Assembly: GCA_021158055.1 (NCBI GenBank)
Contig: JAGGVJ010000010.1
Location: forward strand, 1 to 33,989
Source of the DNA: Candidatus Iainarchaeum sp.
GTDB taxonomy: Archaea; Iainarchaeota; Iainarchaeia; JAGGVJ01
Direction: 5' to 3'
DNA length: 33,989 nt
Below are positions 22,254-33,989 of this stretch, piece after piece. The notes below the pieces were generated by a model that did no database searches, was not told the origin of the DNA, and saw only the letters and a list, made by a program, of their open reading frames with translations. A program made the translations under genes and the position numbers. Every line of letters begins with the position of its first letter. Within the stretch, counting starts at the first letter, position 1.

Positions 22254-23294
22254 ATGGCACACTCCATACAAAACAACACACCAGTAACAGCAAGCAATTC
22301 AAAACCCTTAGACATCCTTATAATCGGAGCAGGGCCTGCCGGCATTTCGTGCGCATCAAGGGCAAAAGAACTGAACCTAACTGCGACTGTAGTAGACGCA
22401 AACACCATTCTGCACACAATCAAACAATACCCCAAACACAAAATTTTGTTTGGTGTTCCCGGTTACTATGGAAAAACATGGGAAAAATTTGTTGCCGGAA
22501 TGGAAAAAAACGTTTTGGACTTCGGGCTGAAAGTGTTTGAAAACACAGACATAAAATCAATTAAAAAAAACAGCGAATTATTTGTTTCAACAACAAGGAA
22601 CGGTAAAAAGTTTCATTCAAAAAAAGTTGTGGTTGCAACCGGCATAAACGACAACCCGAAAAAGCTGGCGGTTCCCATTAAAGACGACAAGCTTGTAAAA
22701 TACCAGCTAAAAGACGCGTCCAAATACAAAAACAAAAAAATAACTATTATCGGCGGAGGCGACTGCGCAATTGAAGCCGCGCTGCAGCTCGACGAATGCA
22801 ATGCACAAGTAACGCTTTGCCATCGAAAATTAAAATTCACCGGAAACGCAAACCCCTCAAACATTCAAAAACTTCTTGACTCAGACATAAAAATTATTTT
22901 CAACTGCAACACTACCCAGATAACTAAAAAATGTGTTCACCTTGCAGACAAAAAAACCGGTAAAACAACAAAGTTACCTGCCGAGCGCGTATTTGTATTC
23001 ATCGGAAAAAGGGCAAACTCTGATTTTTTAAACTCCATCGGGCTTGAACTGCAGGAAAACAGCAAACCTAAATGCAACGAAAAACTTGAATCAAACGTCC
23101 CGGGAATTTACGTAGCAGGCGACCTGACCAACGAGCCGCTGATTCTGCCTGCCGTTTACCAGGGGTTCAAAATCGCCGGCACAATAAAAAAAGAAATCAA
23201 CAAAGAAGCCATGCAAGAATCACAAGACACAGTTTCATCCCCTTCCAAAATAAACGCAGTTTCAAAAAATGCAAGTGCGGCTACGGGGATTTGA
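22254..23294 (+). CDS. Thioredoxin-reductase-like NAD(P)/FAD oxidoreductase lacking CxxC
   Basis: IIGAGPAG, VVATG, IIGGGDCA, SNVPGIYVAGD motifs. Confidence 0.85.
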   Translation: MAHSIQNNTPVTASNSKPLDILIIGAGPAGISCASRAKELNLTATVVDANTILHTIKQYPKHKILFGVPGYYGKTWEKFVAGMEKNVLDFGLKVFENTDIKSIKKNSELFVSTTRNGKKFHSKKVVVATGINDNPKKLAVPIKDDKLVKYQLKDASKYKNKKITIIGGGDCAIEAALQLDECNAQVTLCHRKLKFTGNANPSNIQKLLDSDIKIIFNCNTTQITKKCVHLADKKTGKTTKLPAERVFVFIGKRANSDFLNSIGLELQENSKPKCNEKLESNVPGIYVAGDLTNEPLILPAVYQGFKIAGTIKKEINKEAMQESQDTVSSPSKINAVSKNASAATGI

Positions 23295-23346
23295 ACCCCG
23301 GCAACAAGCTTGGGAAGCTTGCGTCATGCCACTAGACCATAGCCGC
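23276..23346 (-). tRNA. tRNA-Gly(CCC), no intron, CCA not encoded
   Basis: GCGGCTA-TG-GTCTAGTGGCATGAC-G-CAAGC-TTCCCAA-GCTTG-TTGC-CGGGG-TTCAAAT-CCCCG-TAGCCGC-A folds as a full cloverleaf. Confidence 0.96.
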
Positions 23347-28349: not shown

Positions 28350-29648
28350 GTGAAATTAATTGTCTTGCAGGTCGGGCTTGGAAGCTTTGGAAAAAAAGCG
28401 CTTGAAAAATGGTGCGAGCTGGACGGCCAGGTAATAGAAAACACAAAAATAGAGTTTTTAGGGGCGTGCGACAAAAACGAATACTCAAGAGAAAAAGCGC
28501 TCAACATATGCAATGATAAAAACGTGTTTCCCGCGCTGTTTTCAACAAGAAAAGCAATGTTTGAGCACATTGCAAAAACCAGAAAAAAATATGACCTTGT
28601 TCTGGTCTACGACGCAAGTTCCTCAAGCGACCACGCAAGGCACATTCAAGAATGCATAAAACTCGGGTTTTTCTGCCTTGTCGAATCACCCCCCTATACA
28701 AGTTTCAGTGAAGAAAAACAGGTAATGGATCTAATTCACTTTGTTCACGTGTCAAACGAAAACAATTTTTACAACAAGTGGCTTTGCTGCCAGACAGAAT
28801 CGGAAAACCCCGTCGTTCTAACGGTCTTGGATCTTTTGAAAAAGGAAAACCAAAAAATAAAAAGCATAGAAACCTGCCGGTTTTCTTCAATCGGGCTTGA
28901 AAAATCAGCTGCACCATTGTTTCGCGAGGGAGTGACCGGCGGAGACCTGCTTGACCTTTTGCCTGAAGAATCATACATCCTGAGGTTTTTTACCGACAAC
29001 CCTGCAAAACTGGACATCTTTCTTGAAAACGCCAAATCAGACTATTTAATGGTCTCAAACACGCAAGACCAACCCAGCCTGATGAACTGTTCAGGACAGG
29101 AAATCACAAGGGCAAACATGAAAGAAAACCCACCCGCAAGCGCGCAGACAAAAGTAATGCTGAAAATCAACAACACACCCGTAACGCTTAACTCCGGGTG
29201 GCTTGGACTGCCAAAAGAAATAAAGGAAAAAACAGAGTCAATCGGCAGGCAGGCAAAACACAACTTTATTTCCTCAGGCAAGACGGCAATGTACCTTGAA
29301 GAACCCGTGCTTAAAGGAATCCGCCTGCTCCACATAAAACTTGAAAAAAGCGAACTCATCGGCGACTTGACCCACAACGCTCTTTTTTCAAGGCACGGTA
29401 AAAGCTGGACAAAGAAAAAACTGGTGAAAACTGAAGGCGACGGGCTTTCAAGAGTATTTTCAAAAACCGTCTCGCACATCCTCGGCAAAGGAAAACCAAG
29501 CACAAGCAGGATTGAAACCGAGCACTTCATGCACCAGATCCTCCTGGCAAAAAAAATGATTTTCTTGAAAAAAATGTACTCAGACCCGAAATATGAAGCA
29601 AACAAAACAATTGAAAAAATAAAGCGGGAAATCAACCCAGGCAACTGA
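28350..29648 (+). CDS. Divergent Gfo/Idh/MocA-like oxidoreductase
   Basis: N-terminal Rossmann QVGLGSFG; LVYDAS..H..LVESP (EKP-like motif); GGDLLD; start set to GTG 28350. Confidence 0.6.
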   Translation: MKLIVLQVGLGSFGKKALEKWCELDGQVIENTKIEFLGACDKNEYSREKALNICNDKNVFPALFSTRKAMFEHIAKTRKKYDLVLVYDASSSSDHARHIQECIKLGFFCLVESPPYTSFSEEKQVMDLIHFVHVSNENNFYNKWLCCQTESENPVVLTVLDLLKKENQKIKSIETCRFSSIGLEKSAAPLFREGVTGGDLLDLLPEESYILRFFTDNPAKLDIFLENAKSDYLMVSNTQDQPSLMNCSGQEITRANMKENPPASAQTKVMLKINNTPVTLNSGWLGLPKEIKEKTESIGRQAKHNFISSGKTAMYLEEPVLKGIRLLHIKLEKSELIGDLTHNALFSRHGKSWTKKKLVKTEGDGLSRVFSKTVSHILGKGKPSTSRIETEHFMHQILLAKKMIFLKKMYSDPKYEANKTIEKIKREINPGN

Positions 29649-30110
29649 TTGCAAAAACAGATCCTATTCCTGGTTAAACACCACACGCAATTTAATTACA
29701 TTGCCCACAGTGCTTCTTTTATATTATAAAAAAACTTATAGTACTTCCAAAAATTTTTTAATAATCATTTAAATAAATTCCAGCAGTAAATAATGCATCA
29801 TTCTCTATTCTCAAATTCTTCAACGCCCTTGTCTGCTTCAAAGACACAACCCCGAGCCGGCACTCTAAAAGCCACCAAAGAGACCTTACTCTTCAAAAGA
29901 AAAAACACTACAATAACTCAAAAAACTCAATTCCCACCCCTAACCCCTATCAAACAAATTTTATCACCCCCATTGCATTCACCTGGATTTACCCGCATGA
30001 ACTGCAAACCAATAACAACAATAACACATAAAAAATCATAAAAAAATAAACAAAGACTGTAAAAAGTAAACAAACAGTCAAAACTATTTCACGCACACTT
30101 TAACAACGCA

Positions 30111-30180
30111 GCAGTGTGTCAAAGGCACCTTATTGGGTTCGAGTCCCAAAACTGCAATCAGCTTTGCAGACCGGCAAAGC
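30111..30180 (+). ncRNA. tRNA-like element copy 1 plus downstream hairpin
   Basis: GCAGT/ACTGC stem, GTGTC-AAA-GGCAC arm, TTGGG-TTCGAGT-CCCAA T arm, then GCTTTGC-AGACCG-GCAAAGC. Confidence 0.7.
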
Positions 30181-30286
30181 ACGTACTGACCCCTAAACTC
30201 GGATGAGCATAAGGGAAACACCACATTGGGGCTGCTTAATAACCAAGCAGAGGTAAATCCAACAAAAATAATGGAAGGCAATAAGA

Positions 30287-30484
30287 ATGAGCGAAGAAAT
30301 TCCAGAAAAAGAAGATGAACAATTTACATTGACAGACATAGACACGGGCGAAAGCGTAGTTTGTACTGTGCCGATGCTGTTAGGGATAGGCCCCGAAAAA
30401 AATAAGTTCGGAGCACCTAAGAAACCATTGACAAAAAAACAAAAATTAGTTTCTCTGCTGAGGAAATTAATCAAAAAAATATAA
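30287..30484 (+). CDS. Small hypothetical protein (cassette 1)
   Basis: 65 aa with GGAAGG upstream; acidic N-terminus and basic amphipathic C-terminus; lies between tRNA-like copies 1 and 2. Confidence 0.55.
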   Translation: MSEEIPEKEDEQFTLTDIDTGESVVCTVPMLLGIGPEKNKFGAPKKPLTKKQKLVSLLRKLIKKI

Positions 30485-30590
30485 ATATAGTGGATTTTCT
30501 GCTTAATGCACCTTGATTTTTGGGGCGAATAGCAGAAAATTTCATATTTTTTAGCCACCAATCAGAGAAATGTCAAAAACCAACAAAAAA

Positions 30591-30662
30591 GCAGTTGCAC
30601 AAACTGGTGCTTTTCTCAGGTTCAAACCCTGAAACTGCGATCGCTTTGCAAACCGGCAAAGC
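30591..30662 (+). ncRNA. tRNA-like element copy 2 plus downstream hairpin
   Basis: GCAGTT/AACTGC, GCAC-AAACTG-GTGC, TCAGG-TTCAAAC-CCTGA, then GCTTTGC-AAACCG-GCAAAGC. Confidence 0.75.
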
Positions 30663-30890
30663 AACTAGTCAGAATAACAGAACAGAATACAACATTATGG
30701 AAAATAACATGATTAAATTGTATTGTTTTGTTTATTTTCATTTATCAAACTGTTTACTACTATTTATTGTTTGCTTATTGTTTATTTACTAACTGTTTAT
30801 TATTTGTTTATTTTTGTTTACTAAATATTTATTACCTGCTTAATTACTTACTGCCCTGAATACACAAACCGAAAAAATGAATCTTTTTTG

Positions 30891-30905
30891 CGAAAGGTTT
30901 ATATA
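30891..30905 (+). promoter_or_regulatory. Consensus-like archaeal BRE + TATA promoter
   Basis: CGAAAGG followed by TTTATATA. Confidence 0.6.
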
Positions 30906-31334
30906 GTTTGTTTGCAATAAATATTGTATCTTTTCTATTCTCTCATTCTTCAAACATTTGTCCATGTTCACGGACACACCAACAGACATAGCAGTCTTAA
31001 AATGCTAAAAACGAGATTCAACTCGCCAAAACACTTACTCATTATCCTCACTACTCACTTACCCTACTCATTATCCTCACTACTTACTATTACACTAGTA
31101 TCACACCATTACACTTTCAATTTTTGATTTTTAAATCTTAAAAAATCACATCTGAACTAATTCTTCTTCAGATTAAAGCAGTTTTCCCTGCACACCCCTT
31201 TTTCTTAAACAATTCCTTAATGTTCACTGCAAAGAACAAAGAACTAAACGCAGTAAACATTCCATTGGTTGATCCGAAAAAACAACCATAATTCAATCAC
31301 TTCTACTTATATGATACATAACAATAAACTTCTT

Positions 31335-31523
31335 CTAAAATGAAAGGACCCCCATCATACGGAACCCACTTTTTAACTCAATTGGGTCCTTTCGCTTCCC
31401 GTCACGTTTACCCCTGGACAGGATAAAAACAAACTCTTTTTTAAAAACAATTACAGAGCACTCATCAGGCGCATTGGATAAAACGCCCAAAACTCTTTTT
31501 AGGTAAACCCGCTCTTCCTCCAT
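31335..31523 (-). CDS. Possible small hypothetical protein
   Basis: 62 aa ORF with GTGAT SD-like motif just upstream; no recognised family. Confidence 0.35.
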   Translation of the reverse strand: MEEERVYLKRVLGVLSNAPDECSVIVFKKEFVFILSRGKRDGKRKDPIELKSGFRMMGVLSF

Positions 31524-31726
31524 CCATCACGTCAGCAAATCACAAAAACGCTGATAAAAACACATACTATGTAAAAAATTATGTAGTAAAAAATTCCGGT
31601 TAACCACAATTGGAAACAAAACTAATCGGTTACAAATACCAACATAGCTGTTTAGGCGTTCCCTAACATCTTCTGAGTACCCGCTCAAACCACCAAAATT
31701 ATTTGGTGCTACATCAAATCAAACAA

Positions 31727-31818
31727 GCAACTCTGCATACACAGGGTATACTAAGCGAAAGCTTAACAGGGTTCAAATCCCGCAGTTGCAATCGCTTTAC
31801 CAAAGCAACCGGCAAAGC
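31727..31818 (+). ncRNA. tRNA-like element copy 3 plus downstream hairpin
   Basis: GCAACT/AGTTGC, ATAC-ACAGG-GTAT, TAAGC-GAAA-GCTTA, GGG-TTCAAAT-CCC, then GCTTTACC..GGCAAAGC. Confidence 0.75.
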
Positions 31819-31843
31819 AACAAAAACATGGGAGTGGAACAAC

Positions 31844-32161
31844 ATGCACAACAACACAACACCAGAAAACAAAGAACTTCAAAAGGCGGAAAAAACGCCA
31901 AGAGAGACATATAAGGCATGGCAAAAATGGCAAAAGTACTTTAAGGAAAAACTGTACAGGCAACCCGCATCGTCACACGAAGACTATTACAATCTGGCGA
32001 TACTTACTGCAAGGTCACCGCAACAGGCGATTGCAATGATCAGGAAAGCGCAGAGGATTGATCCAAGTAGTATGGGAATCGACCTCGCAGAGGATTTCAG
32101 GTTGCTGTACAATAGGACGGAACACGACTATGAAAGGCAACACATCTCTGCTTTACGGTAG
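31844..32161 (+). CDS. Small hypothetical protein with one TPR-like motif
   Basis: ATG 31844 behind GGAGTG; YYNLAIL..AIAMIRKAQRIDP resembles a TPR repeat. Confidence 0.65.
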   Translation: MHNNTTPENKELQKAEKTPRETYKAWQKWQKYFKEKLYRQPASSHEDYYNLAILTARSPQQAIAMIRKAQRIDPSSMGIDLAEDFRLLYNRTEHDYERQHISALR

Positions 32162-32166
32162 TGAAT

Positions 32167-32186
32167 TGGCTTCTTTTTTTACGCCA
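32167..32186 (+). terminator. Repeated U-loop stem-loop after stop codon (copy A)
   Basis: TGGC-TTCTTTTTTTAC-GCCA, 5 nt after the stop. Confidence 0.6.
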
Positions 32187-32208
32187 CCCGCCCCCGTGAA
32201 ACACAGCA

Positions 32209-32297
32209 GTGGCAAGAAACGCAATTACTGCGTTGTCTTAGCGAGCATCAAAACCGCAGCCGCCAATTACTTTGCCAAAAAAACCAAGGCAAGGTAA
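32209..32297 (+). ncRNA. Degenerate tRNA-like element copy 4 plus downstream hairpin
   Basis: GTGGC/GCCGC stem, AACGCA-ATTAC-TGCGTT arm, ATCAAAACCGC T-arm remnant, then TTACTTTGCC..GGCAAGGTAA. Confidence 0.55.
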
Positions 32298-32337
32298 AAA
32301 AAGCATATTAGAGATAAAAACAAAGGAGTTGAAAACT

Positions 32338-32943
32338 ATGAAATTAATAACATTCGTGGTGCTTGGCATGATCATCATGATAAGTGTAGTCAGCGTAGGA
32401 GCTTACGCGTTTGTAAAATCCGCTGACTTTGGATACATCTCCGGAACCACCGAAGACTACTCTGTGGCTAAAGAGGATTTTCGACTGGAAGTCAATGGTG
32501 AAATCGCCACCATCCAGGACGGCAAACTTGCCTCACCCGGAGATACATTTGTAGTTCCCATCAAGGGAAAGTACAAGACAAGCGGAACGGTCAAAATCAC
32601 CAACACCGAAAATAACAAAGGGATTATCATATATAATCTCGGAGTTGGCACAGGTGATTATGCTAAAGCCAGCACCAAGTGGTCATTTAACAGGAATAGT
32701 GGGTGGTTTTCGTGGAGATCACCTGATTCCCTAATATTTGGGAAGGGAACTGGACTACATGTGTTAAGCGGAAGCCCGGAGATGAACGCAGCTCTTGAGT
32801 CAATCAGGGTCGGAGATGAAATCGTGATAAGCGGCTATGACGGAGAAAAAATAATTCTCTACGAAAACGGGAAAAAGCTCACGCGTGGCCTCAAAGGATG
32901 CCATTACGTAGTGGTCACAGACCTGAAAATAAAGAAAAAATAA
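32338..32943 (+). CDS. Hypothetical secreted/membrane-anchored protein
   Basis: ATG 32338 behind AAGGAG; N-terminal hydrophobic segment; IRVGDEIVISG suggests an OB-like strand. Confidence 0.75.
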   Translation: MKLITFVVLGMIIMISVVSVGAYAFVKSADFGYISGTTEDYSVAKEDFRLEVNGEIATIQDGKLASPGDTFVVPIKGKYKTSGTVKITNTENNKGIIIYNLGVGTGDYAKASTKWSFNRNSGWFSWRSPDSLIFGKGTGLHVLSGSPEMNAALESIRVGDEIVISGYDGEKIILYENGKKLTRGLKGCHYVVVTDLKIKKK

Positions 32944-32949
32944 AATTCA

Positions 32950-32973
32950 GTCGGCTTCTTTTTTTACGCCGAC
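32950..32973 (+). terminator. Repeated U-loop stem-loop after stop codon (copy B)
   Basis: GTCGGC-TTCTTTTTTTAC-GCCGAC. Confidence 0.6.
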
Positions 32974-32992
32974 CTATTTCTTTGCAGGAGTA

Positions 32993-33091
32993 GCATCTGA
33001 GCGCTGGACGGAGCGCAGGCACTGAAAAAAGTGTTCAACCGGCTCAAAACCGGCAGTTGCCATAGCTTTGCCAAAAAAGCAACGGCAAAGT
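32993..33091 (+). ncRNA. tRNA-like element copy 5 (cloverleaf-like) plus downstream hairpin
   Basis: GCATCTG/CAGTTGC (one T-T), GCGCT-GGACGG-AGCGC, GCACT-GAAAAA-AGTGT, CCGG-CTCAAAA-CCGG, then GCTTTGCC..GGCAAAGT. Confidence 0.72.
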
Positions 33092-33113
33092 GAACAACCA
33101 GGAGTGAAACAAC

Positions 33114-33545
33114 ATGCACAACACAACACAAGAAACCGAAGAACTTCAACAAATCGAAATGGAACTCTTTGGAACAACCCAAAGAACCGAACGATTCATA
33201 GAAGAAACCGCAGCATCCAACAGCAAGAGCACAACAGGCACCCTGACAGCGGAAAACATACTTTCCTTCCTCAGAACCAAGGATACCGCAACATTGTTCA
33301 AAACACTAAGATCAGTGTCGTCACCAGGATGTATGTGCGACACCCCTAAGTTAACAGAACAACTATGCAAAGCAATCACTTTGAGATTGTTCAACGGCAA
33401 CCCGAGGATTTCCGAAAGCATGACAAACATGCTCATAATCGGAAAACACAGGTACGCATGGTCATTCACTGAACTTGTGAACGTTTTCAAGTTCAACGAA
33501 GAATGCATCAGCCTGATTGAACGCACTGCACAGCAAACCACCTAA
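33114..33545 (+). CDS. Hypothetical protein
   Basis: ATG behind GGAGTG; N-terminus shared with the 31844 ORF; no recognised family. Confidence 0.65.
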   Translation: MHNTTQETEELQQIEMELFGTTQRTERFIEETAASNSKSTTGTLTAENILSFLRTKDTATLFKTLRSVSSPGCMCDTPKLTEQLCKAITLRLFNGNPRISESMTNMLIIGKHRYAWSFTELVNVFKFNEECISLIERTAQQTT

Positions 33546-33553
33546 AGCATTGA

Positions 33554-33588
33554 CAGTAAATTGGCTTCTTTTTTTACGCCACTTACTG
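33554..33588 (+). terminator. Repeated U-loop stem-loop after stop codon (copy C)
   Basis: CAGTAA..TGGC-TTCTTTTTTTAC-GCCA..TTACTG. Confidence 0.6.
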
Positions 33589-33627
33589 CCGTGATTAACA
33601 AATCACAAATAAGGAATCACTTCCTTA

Positions 33628-33715
33628 GCAGTTGAACACGCACACCGGGTGCAACTAACTCCTCGGGTTCAAATCCCGCAACTGCAATCGCTTTGTCAAA
33701 AGCAACCGGCAAAGT
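33628..33715 (+). ncRNA. tRNA-like element copy 6 plus downstream hairpin
   Basis: GCAGTTG/CAACTGC, GCAC-ACCGG-GTGC, CGGG-TTCAAAT-CCCG, then GCTTTGTC..GGCAAAGT. Confidence 0.78.
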
Positions 33716-33811
33716 AAGAACAAGCAGGACAAGATACTGCTTGTAACACCTCAACTGCTCCAGCGAAAGCGGGAAGCGTTGAGTAGAACAACCTATAAGG
33801 AGAGAAACAAT

Positions 33812-33989
33812 ATGCCAGAAGGCAACACAAATGGAACGTCAGAAAATGACGAACACAGAACCCCTAGAAACTGGAAGAGAATAGGGAAAATAGGCACCGG
33901 ACTAGTAACAATAATTGCAGTCCTTGCCTTAATATCGTGGCTAAGAGATCCAATCCTAAGCTGGATAACAAACCACTGGCTGGTGACAG
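33812..33989 (+). CDS. Hypothetical membrane protein, truncated by window end (not in ORF track)
   Basis: AAGGAG SD, then MPEGNTNGTSENDEHRTPRNWKRIGKIGTGLVTIIAVLALISWLRDPILSWITNHWLVT, open to the end. Confidence 0.6.
   Translation, partial: MPEGNTNGTSENDEHRTPRNWKRIGKIGTGLVTIIAVLALISWLRDPILSWITNHWLVT

Follow-up and report, generated by a model that had tools for sequence, protein, structure and literature searches.

Candidate archaeal t-elements: a family of tRNA-like leader modules in a gene island of an Iainarchaeota genome

The closest described systems to the one reported here are the t-elements of a haloarchaeon and of plant mitochondria. In Haloferax volcanii, transfer RNA (tRNA)-like elements that flank an RNA are cut by RNase P and tRNase Z (PMC4946936), and in plant mitochondria t-elements carrying the motif GGTTCRANYCC, which is also the motif used to find them, set the 5′ and 3′ ends of messenger RNAs (mRNAs), one such element upstream of cox1 fixing the 5′ end of the mRNA (PMC1920247). 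This study concerns a set of tRNA-like elements in a stretch of 33,989 nucleotides (nt) from Candidatus Iainarchaeum sp., referred to as the window, which is a complete contig (C20; JAGGVJ010000010.1) of an assembly of 1.15 Mb in 45 contigs that is 94.9% complete (GCA_021158055.1). An earlier note, made from the letters of the window alone, had described six plus-strand elements near its end, each an anticodon-less tRNA mimic placed before a hairpin and a small open reading frame (ORF), and all six were recovered, at 30111, 30591, 31727, 32206, 32993 and 33628, the start of the fourth being corrected from 32209 to 32206. On what we judge to be an even balance of probability, they are proposed to be archaeal t-elements that RNase P and tRNase Z would excise.

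A covariance model built from eight copies and comprising seven acceptor pairs, four T-stem pairs and eight pairs of the following hairpin found 13 copies in the genome, six in the window and seven on contig C23 (at 4845, 6189/6201, 6520, 7602, 8375, 16009 and 16917), with none on the other contigs, and all 13 are oriented on the plus strand. Twelve of these copies score 42–99 bits; the remaining one, the fourth element of the window (W4, 32206), is a degenerate member with 18.4 bits and a genome-wide E value of 0.55, and it was accepted as a copy because of its position and its downstream hairpin only. With the filters off, the next best score over C23:1–40000 was 12 bits, compared with at least 62 bits for the true copies, and the background in the window consists of a real tRNA-Gly at 16.6 bits and one other match at 12 bits. 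A degenerate pattern of 24 letters describing the T arm and the 3′ acceptor strand matches the window five times, compared with a shuffle mean of 0.04, and none of 100 shuffles reached five matches. By the spacing on a 17.1-kb contig of source run X1, one further copy probably lies about 0.9 kb before the first base of C23, and the total is 13 copies in the assembly with at least one more in the source metagenome. The comparison of source samples used DNA contigs of three runs, of which run X3 covered almost nothing of the stretch, and all copies come from one population. Some contig ends that lie beside copies in the source runs are absent from the assembly. The covariance model found no member in 100 relatives or in a sample of 150 genomes of the phylum (same class, other families; the two sets overlap), and DNA patterns matched none of the viral, genome and metagenome contigs scanned. 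Two viral loci picked up by a looser pattern scored at most 11 bits with the model, one of them containing an ordinary tRNA-Lys, and were set aside as chance matches. The six elements of the window are part of a lineage-specific family of tRNA-like RNA leader modules.

Each element folds as an acceptor-like stem around a T arm (loop TTCRAAT) with one or two variable inner hairpins, or three inner arms in the fifth element of the window (W5), and without an anticodon loop. The element is followed by a discriminator base, the letters ATC and then a separate conserved hairpin, HP1, and the linker ATC together with HP1 holds the most conserved letters of the module. In an alignment of 13 rows, in which the model set the 5′ strand of W5 at 33001 rather than at 32993, standard pairs occupy 91.6% of the cells, compared with 27.9–43.9% in six controls in which the 3′ partners were slid by 1–3 columns. 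Changes on both sides are seen in six of the 19 pairs, a number reached by one of 500 shuffles, and the covariation score is 0.176, compared with a shuffle mean of 0.116, and was reached by none of the 500. The covariance model that the earlier note had proposed as a check thus returned a family of 13 with compensatory changes. The acceptor stem occurs as GCAGTTG/CAACTGC, GCAACT/AGTTGC and GCAGC/GCTGC, and the T stem as CGGG/CCCG, TCAGG/CCTGA and CCGG/CCGG, while the first inner hairpin is paired with letters as unlike as GCGCU/AGCGC, GCAC/GUGC, AUAC/GUAU and ACAUGC/GCGUGU. Inner arms that vary in number and sequence and are nevertheless paired are consistent with enzymes whose recognition is limited to the acceptor/T helix and the elbow.

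Of the 13 copies, 11 contain the T-arm motif GGTTCRANYCC. The motif occurs 53 times in the genome, namely 16 times in tRNAs recognized by ARAGORN, 11 times in the elements and 26 times elsewhere. In our own reading, about 11 of these 26 other sites look like intron-bearing tRNAs that ARAGORN missed; its tRNA count for the genome is only 22, several of them with introns in the D-loop region. By eye, the first inner loop or its closing pair has a GG on the 3′ side in ten of the 13 copies, and in five the GG is wholly within the loop; an elbow mimic, as expected of a D loop meeting a T loop, would look like this. An anticodon loop of 7 nt is found in no copy, the inner arms being missing or carrying loops of 3–6 nt. 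The description of the elements as tRNA mimics without an anticodon is upheld: the acceptor stem and the T arm with its canonical loop are kept, which is exactly what RNase P and tRNase Z read, and a hairpin resembling a D arm is retained besides.

Known RNA families do not account for the elements. In the window, ARAGORN recognized only the tRNA-Gly at 23275–23346, with no element and no transfer-messenger RNA (tmRNA), and Rfam, at its gathering thresholds and at E values up to 10 over 29600–33989, matched no element, the tRNA model included; a comparison with known families, also suggested in the earlier note, thus leaves all six unrecognized by both. The acceptor GCAGTTG/CAACTGC is absent from the 22 ARAGORN tRNAs of the genome, and the remaining sites of the T-arm motif are unrelated. 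The lack of ARAGORN and Rfam matches and of a 7-nt anticodon loop speaks against a canonical tRNA identity. Split or permuted tRNA genes were dropped, since a single short unit contains both acceptor strands, tmRNA was dropped, as ARAGORN finds none, and no bulge-helix-bulge splicing motif was seen by eye.

An ATG ORF follows within 18–106 nt of 11 of the 13 elements, and in most of these ORFs the motif GGAG stands 7–9 nt before the start, including 8–9 nt upstream of the ORFs at 31844, 32338, 33114 and 33812; in the frame behind the copy at C23:4845, ATA stands in place of the ATG of its relatives. In agreement with the earlier note, five of the six elements of the window are followed by an ORF (starts at 30287, 31844, 32338, 33114 and 33812), with none convincing after 30591, and U-loop stem-loops lie behind ORFs at about 30492–30542, 32168–32185, 32953–32970 and 33563–33580. 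Its description of these ORFs as unrelated applies to most of them; the ORFs at 31844 and 33114 have in common their first 30 or so residues, and no more than these. The three short stem-loops are weak (−5 to −9.5 kcal/mol, with short stems). The hairpins whose T-run lies within the loop or directly behind it fall into a type A (GGCTTCTTTTTTTACGCC), with four copies, and a type B, with two copies; both types are confined to the island of genes that surrounds the elements, and in both a compensatory change is seen in the stem. The elements stand after T-run hairpins and head the next transcription unit, and seven co-directional genes (C23:8501–15852) follow the copy at C23:8375 without a further element, which together indicate 5′ leader modules of transcription units and not separators of every gene. 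The suggestion that the elements punctuate a polycistronic transcript and cut it into single-gene mRNAs is accordingly not borne out. T-runs follow the real tRNA genes of the genome and none is found after the elements, so that transcription should continue into HP1 and the ORF. Five leaders also contain, after HP1, a second hairpin with a common CAGC/GCTG stem (C23 6273–6300, 6620–6650, 7686–7715 and 16094–16130; window 33715–33800), and the leader of the sixth element of the window (W6) has a third hairpin.

Both enzymes are encoded in the genome: an RNase P RNA lies at C14:49077–49311 (111.8 bits; cut-off 84) and a tRNase Z at C27:19749–20642 (341 bits; cut-off 293). RNase P and tRNase Z need little beyond the acceptor/T helix and the elbow. 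Given the known cleavage of t-elements and the presence of both enzymes, the t-element is the simplest reading, and it builds on the observed family, its structure and covariation, its position and the two enzymes. In the proposed mechanism, transcription of the module would follow the direction of the genes, and the module would lie at the 5′ end, or close to it, of a transcription unit in the mostly orphan-gene island. Host RNase P would cut at the 5′ end of the acceptor stem, removing whatever lies upstream, and tRNase Z would cut after the discriminator base, releasing a tRNA-shaped RNA of about 45–70 nt. The remaining mRNA would start with AUC and HP1; located directly before the ribosome-binding site, HP1 would protect the newly made 5′ end, and the T-run hairpins behind the ORFs would end each unit.

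Several points weigh against cleavage as t-elements. The copies are paralogues of one genome, so that the covariation counts are not independent, and the alignment was fitted to the structure of the model. The helices contain about as many G–U cells (ten) as A–C cells (11), and the pairing gives no information on the strand or on selection at the level of RNA or DNA; the strand is told by the text of the T loop and by the orientation of the genes, not by the pairing. The stack of acceptor and T stems has 11 base pairs (bp) in the best copies (7 + 4, or 6 + 5 in the second element of the window, W2), whereas the canonical number is 12, which could shift or weaken cleavage. W4 is degenerate and W2 leads no ORF. 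No promoter is evident at a fixed distance upstream, AT-rich boxes being seen by eye 25–55 nt upstream of most copies. Transcription, both cuts and the role of HP1 are inferred from DNA sequence, and the need for processing in a unit that has its own terminator and promoter is unexplained.

Of the alternatives, the one that survives best, although we consider it unlikely, is that the fold stays on the mRNA, either as a structured 5′ end that resists 5′-to-3′ exonucleases or as a landing pad for a protein or a specialized ribosome, for instance one with the divergent ribosomal protein uS3 of the island, HP1 being part of the same platform. The placement of the elements at the head of transcription units rather than between cistrons is consistent with this, as are an 11-bp stack that is not canonical for the processing enzymes, the fact that conservation is highest in HP1 and the linker ATC, and an island uS3 paralogue that is only 27% identical to the host protein. 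On the other hand, RNase P and tRNase Z, which are both present, accept just such a combination of canonical T loop, 7-bp acceptor and free discriminator, whereas a binding protein for a landing pad is hypothetical and a simple hairpin would suffice for protection.

The shape of the elements also raises the question of an action in trans. They could be genes for small tRNA-shaped RNAs, such as decoys or competitors for tRNA-binding factors, that lie upstream of ORFs only through common promoters, a reading that we regard as quite unlikely. Selection keeps the tRNA shape with its elbow-like features, the family belongs to a foreign-looking island, and RNAs released from t-elements are stable in plant mitochondria (PMC1920247). 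However, the elements, unlike the real tRNA genes of the genome, lack a T-run terminator, they are closely coupled to HP1, the GGAG site and the start codon, and their inner arms are too variable for one common target in trans.

The irregular copies invite yet another explanation, a selfish or decaying repeat without present function, in which pseudo-tRNA copies would have spread with duplicated intergenic DNA as the paralogues of the island diverged. The island does contain diverged paralogue pairs, the copies include a degenerate one, one without an ORF behind it and one whose frame has ATA in place of ATG, and the family is confined to one genome. We nevertheless hold this to be very unlikely, since three helices stay paired through compensatory changes where the flanks and the inner arms have become too divergent to align, and neither orientation nor placement relative to ORF starts differs among the 13 copies.

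The weakest alternative, which is highly improbable, makes the elements sites at the level of DNA, either recombination sites of cassette capture or att remnants of serial integration into a tRNA gene: unrelated ORFs do come with common leader and trailer modules, mevalonate genes on either side make the island look like an insertion, integrating elements often target tRNA genes (PMC9897764) and the unassembled gap between C20 and C23 could hold a recombinase, but the sole tyrosine recombinase of the assembly lies on C21, no reverse transcriptase was found, no resident tRNA with the same acceptor provides the full-length partner expected for att remnants, both acceptor strands are present and covary where such remnants carry one tRNA part only, the GTTRRRY-like text is at the 5′ side, in the wrong order for attC, and the cassette order is the same in two samples with one base difference. 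Searches of the whole genome gave one match to the tyrosine recombinase family (PF00589), on C21 and none on C20 or C23, and no match to reverse transcriptase (PF00078) in the 94.9%-complete assembly. Where the earlier note had listed integrase, cas and reverse transcriptase genes as missing from the window, these searches bear out the statement for tyrosine recombinases and reverse transcriptases, cas genes not having been specifically searched. Its second suggestion, a SINE-like or integron-like system of cassette capture, finds no support on the same grounds: no reverse transcriptase was found, the sole tyrosine recombinase is elsewhere, the acceptor strands covary, and the comparison of cassette order that it had called for, made here between two samples of one study, revealed no cassette differences.

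The array of the window, in which all features lie on the plus strand, opens with the first element (W1) at 30111–30155, consisting of an acceptor stem, a short inner hairpin and the T arm GGGTTCGAGTCCC, with discriminator A at 30156 (44.1 bits, E value 9e-7 genome-wide). Its HP1 (30161–30180, GCTTTGC..GCAAAGC) is followed after 106 nt by an ORF of 65 amino acids (aa) without a family match (30287–30484) and by a terminator-like stem-loop of 11–12 bp at 30492–30542, with a T-run in the loop and TTTTTT at 30549–30554 (−22.4 kcal/mol for the 90 nt folded, z −2.6). W2 (30591–30638; 65.7 bits) has a 6-bp acceptor, an inner hairpin and a 5-bp T stem, and behind its HP1 (30643–30662) only a 31-codon ATG frame at 30698 was seen by eye. 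W3 (31727–31789; 52.4 bits) has the acceptor GCAACT/AGTTGC, which is compensatory relative to GCAGTT/AACTGC, two inner hairpins, one with a GAAA loop, and a T arm; its HP1 (31794–31818) is followed by an ORF of 105 aa without a family match (31844–32161) and a terminator-like type A U-loop stem-loop, here GGCTTCTTTTTTTACGCC (32168–32185; repeat family D3). The degenerate W4 (32206–32263) has a long inner hairpin and lacks a canonical T loop, and an HP1-like hairpin at 32269–32294 (ACTTTGCC..GGCAAGG; repeat family D8) precedes an ORF of 201 aa with a hydrophobic N-terminus and without a family match (32338–32943), behind which the stem of the type A stem-loop at 32953–32970 is extended to 6 bp with a compensatory change (−9.4 kcal/mol, z −3.3). 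W5 (32993–33060; 42 bits) has a full cloverleaf shape with three inner arms, a middle loop of six A-rich bases that is not an anticodon loop and the T arm CCGGCTCAAAACCGG; HP1 (33065–33090), an ORF of 143 aa without a family match (33114–33545) and a type A stem-loop (33563–33580) follow. W6 (33628–33685; 88.7 bits) combines the 7-bp acceptor GCAGTTG/CAACTGC, an inner hairpin with loop ACCGG, a 4-bp T stem and the loop TTCAAAT, and its HP1 (33690–33714) is followed by two more hairpins, the GGAG site and an ORF that is cut by the end of the contig (33812–33989).

Some non-coding text between these units is itself repeated. Two paralogous segments of about 130 nt (29770–29900 and 30900–31030) lie about 320 and 800 nt upstream of W1 and W3, respectively, each of which opens with AT-rich, TATA-like sequence and continues with TTCTCTATTCTC..TTCTTCAA and a small hairpin in which a compensatory change is seen; they may represent promoters that have long C/A-rich leaders, or else a further small RNA. 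The gene-poor stretch of 1 kb between W2 and W3 holds a degenerate, T-rich tandem array of TGTTTATT-like units as well as a direct repeat of 29 nt (30700–30835 and 31036–31088; repeat families D2 and D10).

The genomic setting is that of an island. Over positions 1–29650 the window carries ordinary genes (aIF5B- and aIF2-gamma-type GTPases, GluRS, tRNA-Gly and HMG-CoA reductase), and from about 29.7 kb it switches to plus-strand orphan ORFs. Used as a query against genome contigs, the HMG-CoA reductase matched archaea and bacteria from many phyla at 52–67% identity and so does not place the organism. The array, as the earlier note had observed, is still running at the edge of the window, which is the whole contig; the last 127 bases (33863–33989) have about threefold depth in both source runs and also form a contig of their own of 157 bases, and seven more copies are found on C23. 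This depth indicates that the gene of the ORF at 33812 is present in several copies, a probable reason for the end of the contig at this point. The same kind of text, plus-strand orphan ORFs with few recognizable genes, makes up C23:1–22153. Pfam and PHROGs gave no family for the five ORFs of the array in the window or for most ORFs of the island, and a protein atlas search returned only weak, unnamed look-alikes below recognition level. The 201-aa ORF has one relative, of 79% identity and on a 2.9-kb contig, among 5.8 billion proteins, and a 325-aa ORF behind the copy at C23:8375 has no relative in the protein search. Recognizable island genes include a uS3 paralogue (C23 1080–1742, plus strand) with KH_2 and S3_C domains, which shows 27% identity to the canonical uS3 of the ribosomal operon (C23:50851–51939, minus strand), as well as a Cdc48-type double AAA ATPase, an AN1 zinc finger protein and a weak metalloprotease motif; diverged paralogue pairs also occur. 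The last island gene, adjoining mevalonate genes, encodes a HerA/FtsK-type P-loop ATPase of 706 aa (C23 20033–22153, plus strand), and ATPases of this type are common in archaeal plasmids and viruses.

Directly after the island, on the opposite strand, lie IDI2-type, isopentenyl-phosphate-kinase-type, flavoprotein and AcnX genes. HMG-CoA reductase is located 4–15 kb from at least the IDI2-type gene in four of the six relatives examined, with all four genes in two of them (G008 and G026), and two island proteins, one from C20 and one from C23, both have a longest recorded contig of 155,628 bases. The mevalonate gene order of the relatives and this common contig point to C20 and C23 as neighbours, and we infer that the two contigs are adjacent and that the island is probably an insertion among mevalonate genes. 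It spans at least 26 kb of assembled sequence (4.3 kb on C20 and 22 kb on C23) and a gap of at least 5 kb; the 17.1-kb contig of run X1 extends about 5.3 kb beyond the start of C23.

So far, tRNA-like processing signals in archaeal mRNAs have been single cases in one haloarchaeon, whereas the module described here, a conserved tRNA mimic with its hairpin, serves as the standard leader throughout an island of mostly orphan genes and is paired with a standard trailer. If the cuts predicted for these candidate t-elements are true, tRNA-processing enzymes would regularly shape mRNA ends in a small-genome archaeon, the module would be a compact natural part for defined RNA ends in archaea, and it would offer a handle on the expression of foreign or fast-evolving gene islands. 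The 13 natural variants could also define the minimal archaeal substrate of RNase P and tRNase Z. A more far-reaching idea, to which we attach only a slim chance, is that the island is foreign and has its own expression grammar, in which each unit begins with a tRNA mimic and a hairpin and ends in a U-loop hairpin, the tRNA enzymes of the host make uniform mRNAs, the divergent uS3 helps ribosomes to take the leaders, and the modules double as homology patches that shuffle the ORFs. Were this the case, it would amount to a tRNA-punctuated, self-contained system of expression and cassette shuffling not described in archaea or their mobile elements.

The statement in the earlier note that this is not a described archaeal system stands in part: an array like this was not found in the literature searched, while the principle is known in archaea from the t-elements of Haloferax volcanii (PMC4946936). 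Those t-elements and the plant mitochondrial ones resemble the elements of the island in their non-canonical tRNA-like fold, in the conserved T arm GGTTCRANYCC and in their location in longer transcripts near mRNA ends; RNase P and tRNase Z act on the known t-elements (PMC4946936, PMC1920247), cleavage in the present case being predicted from sequence. The island elements differ in forming one sequence family of at least 13 copies in one genomic island, in that each copy is fused to a second conserved hairpin and paired with a family of T-run hairpins, and in standing at the head of transcription units. Mitochondrial tRNA punctuation and the mascRNA of MALAT1 are similar in that a tRNA or a mimic within a long transcript guides RNase P and RNase Z to cuts that set the ends of adjacent RNAs; however, they involve real tRNAs between cistrons or a single 3′ mimic, whereas the mimics here have no anticodon arm and lie 5′ of ORFs, after terminator-like signals. 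The partial tRNA genes of attL and attR likewise place tRNA-like text beside foreign-looking DNA in an archaeon (PMC9897764), but these repeat one part of a resident tRNA gene exactly and in direct orientation, whereas the 13 copies here have both acceptor strands, which covary, and match no resident tRNA. The arrays of integron attC sites are also one-directional series of unrelated small ORFs split by structured repeats, although here the array lacks a neighbouring integrase, its repeat precedes the ORF and has a tRNA T loop, and the order of the core sites does not fit that of attC. The tRNA-like domain of tmRNA shares an acceptor stem and a T arm without an anticodon arm, but tmRNA is bacterial and has its ORF between its two acceptor strands. 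In conclusion, the principle of a tRNA-like processing signal is known, and what is new is a multi-copy, island-wide leader of tRNA mimic and hairpin that is matched with a family of trailers.

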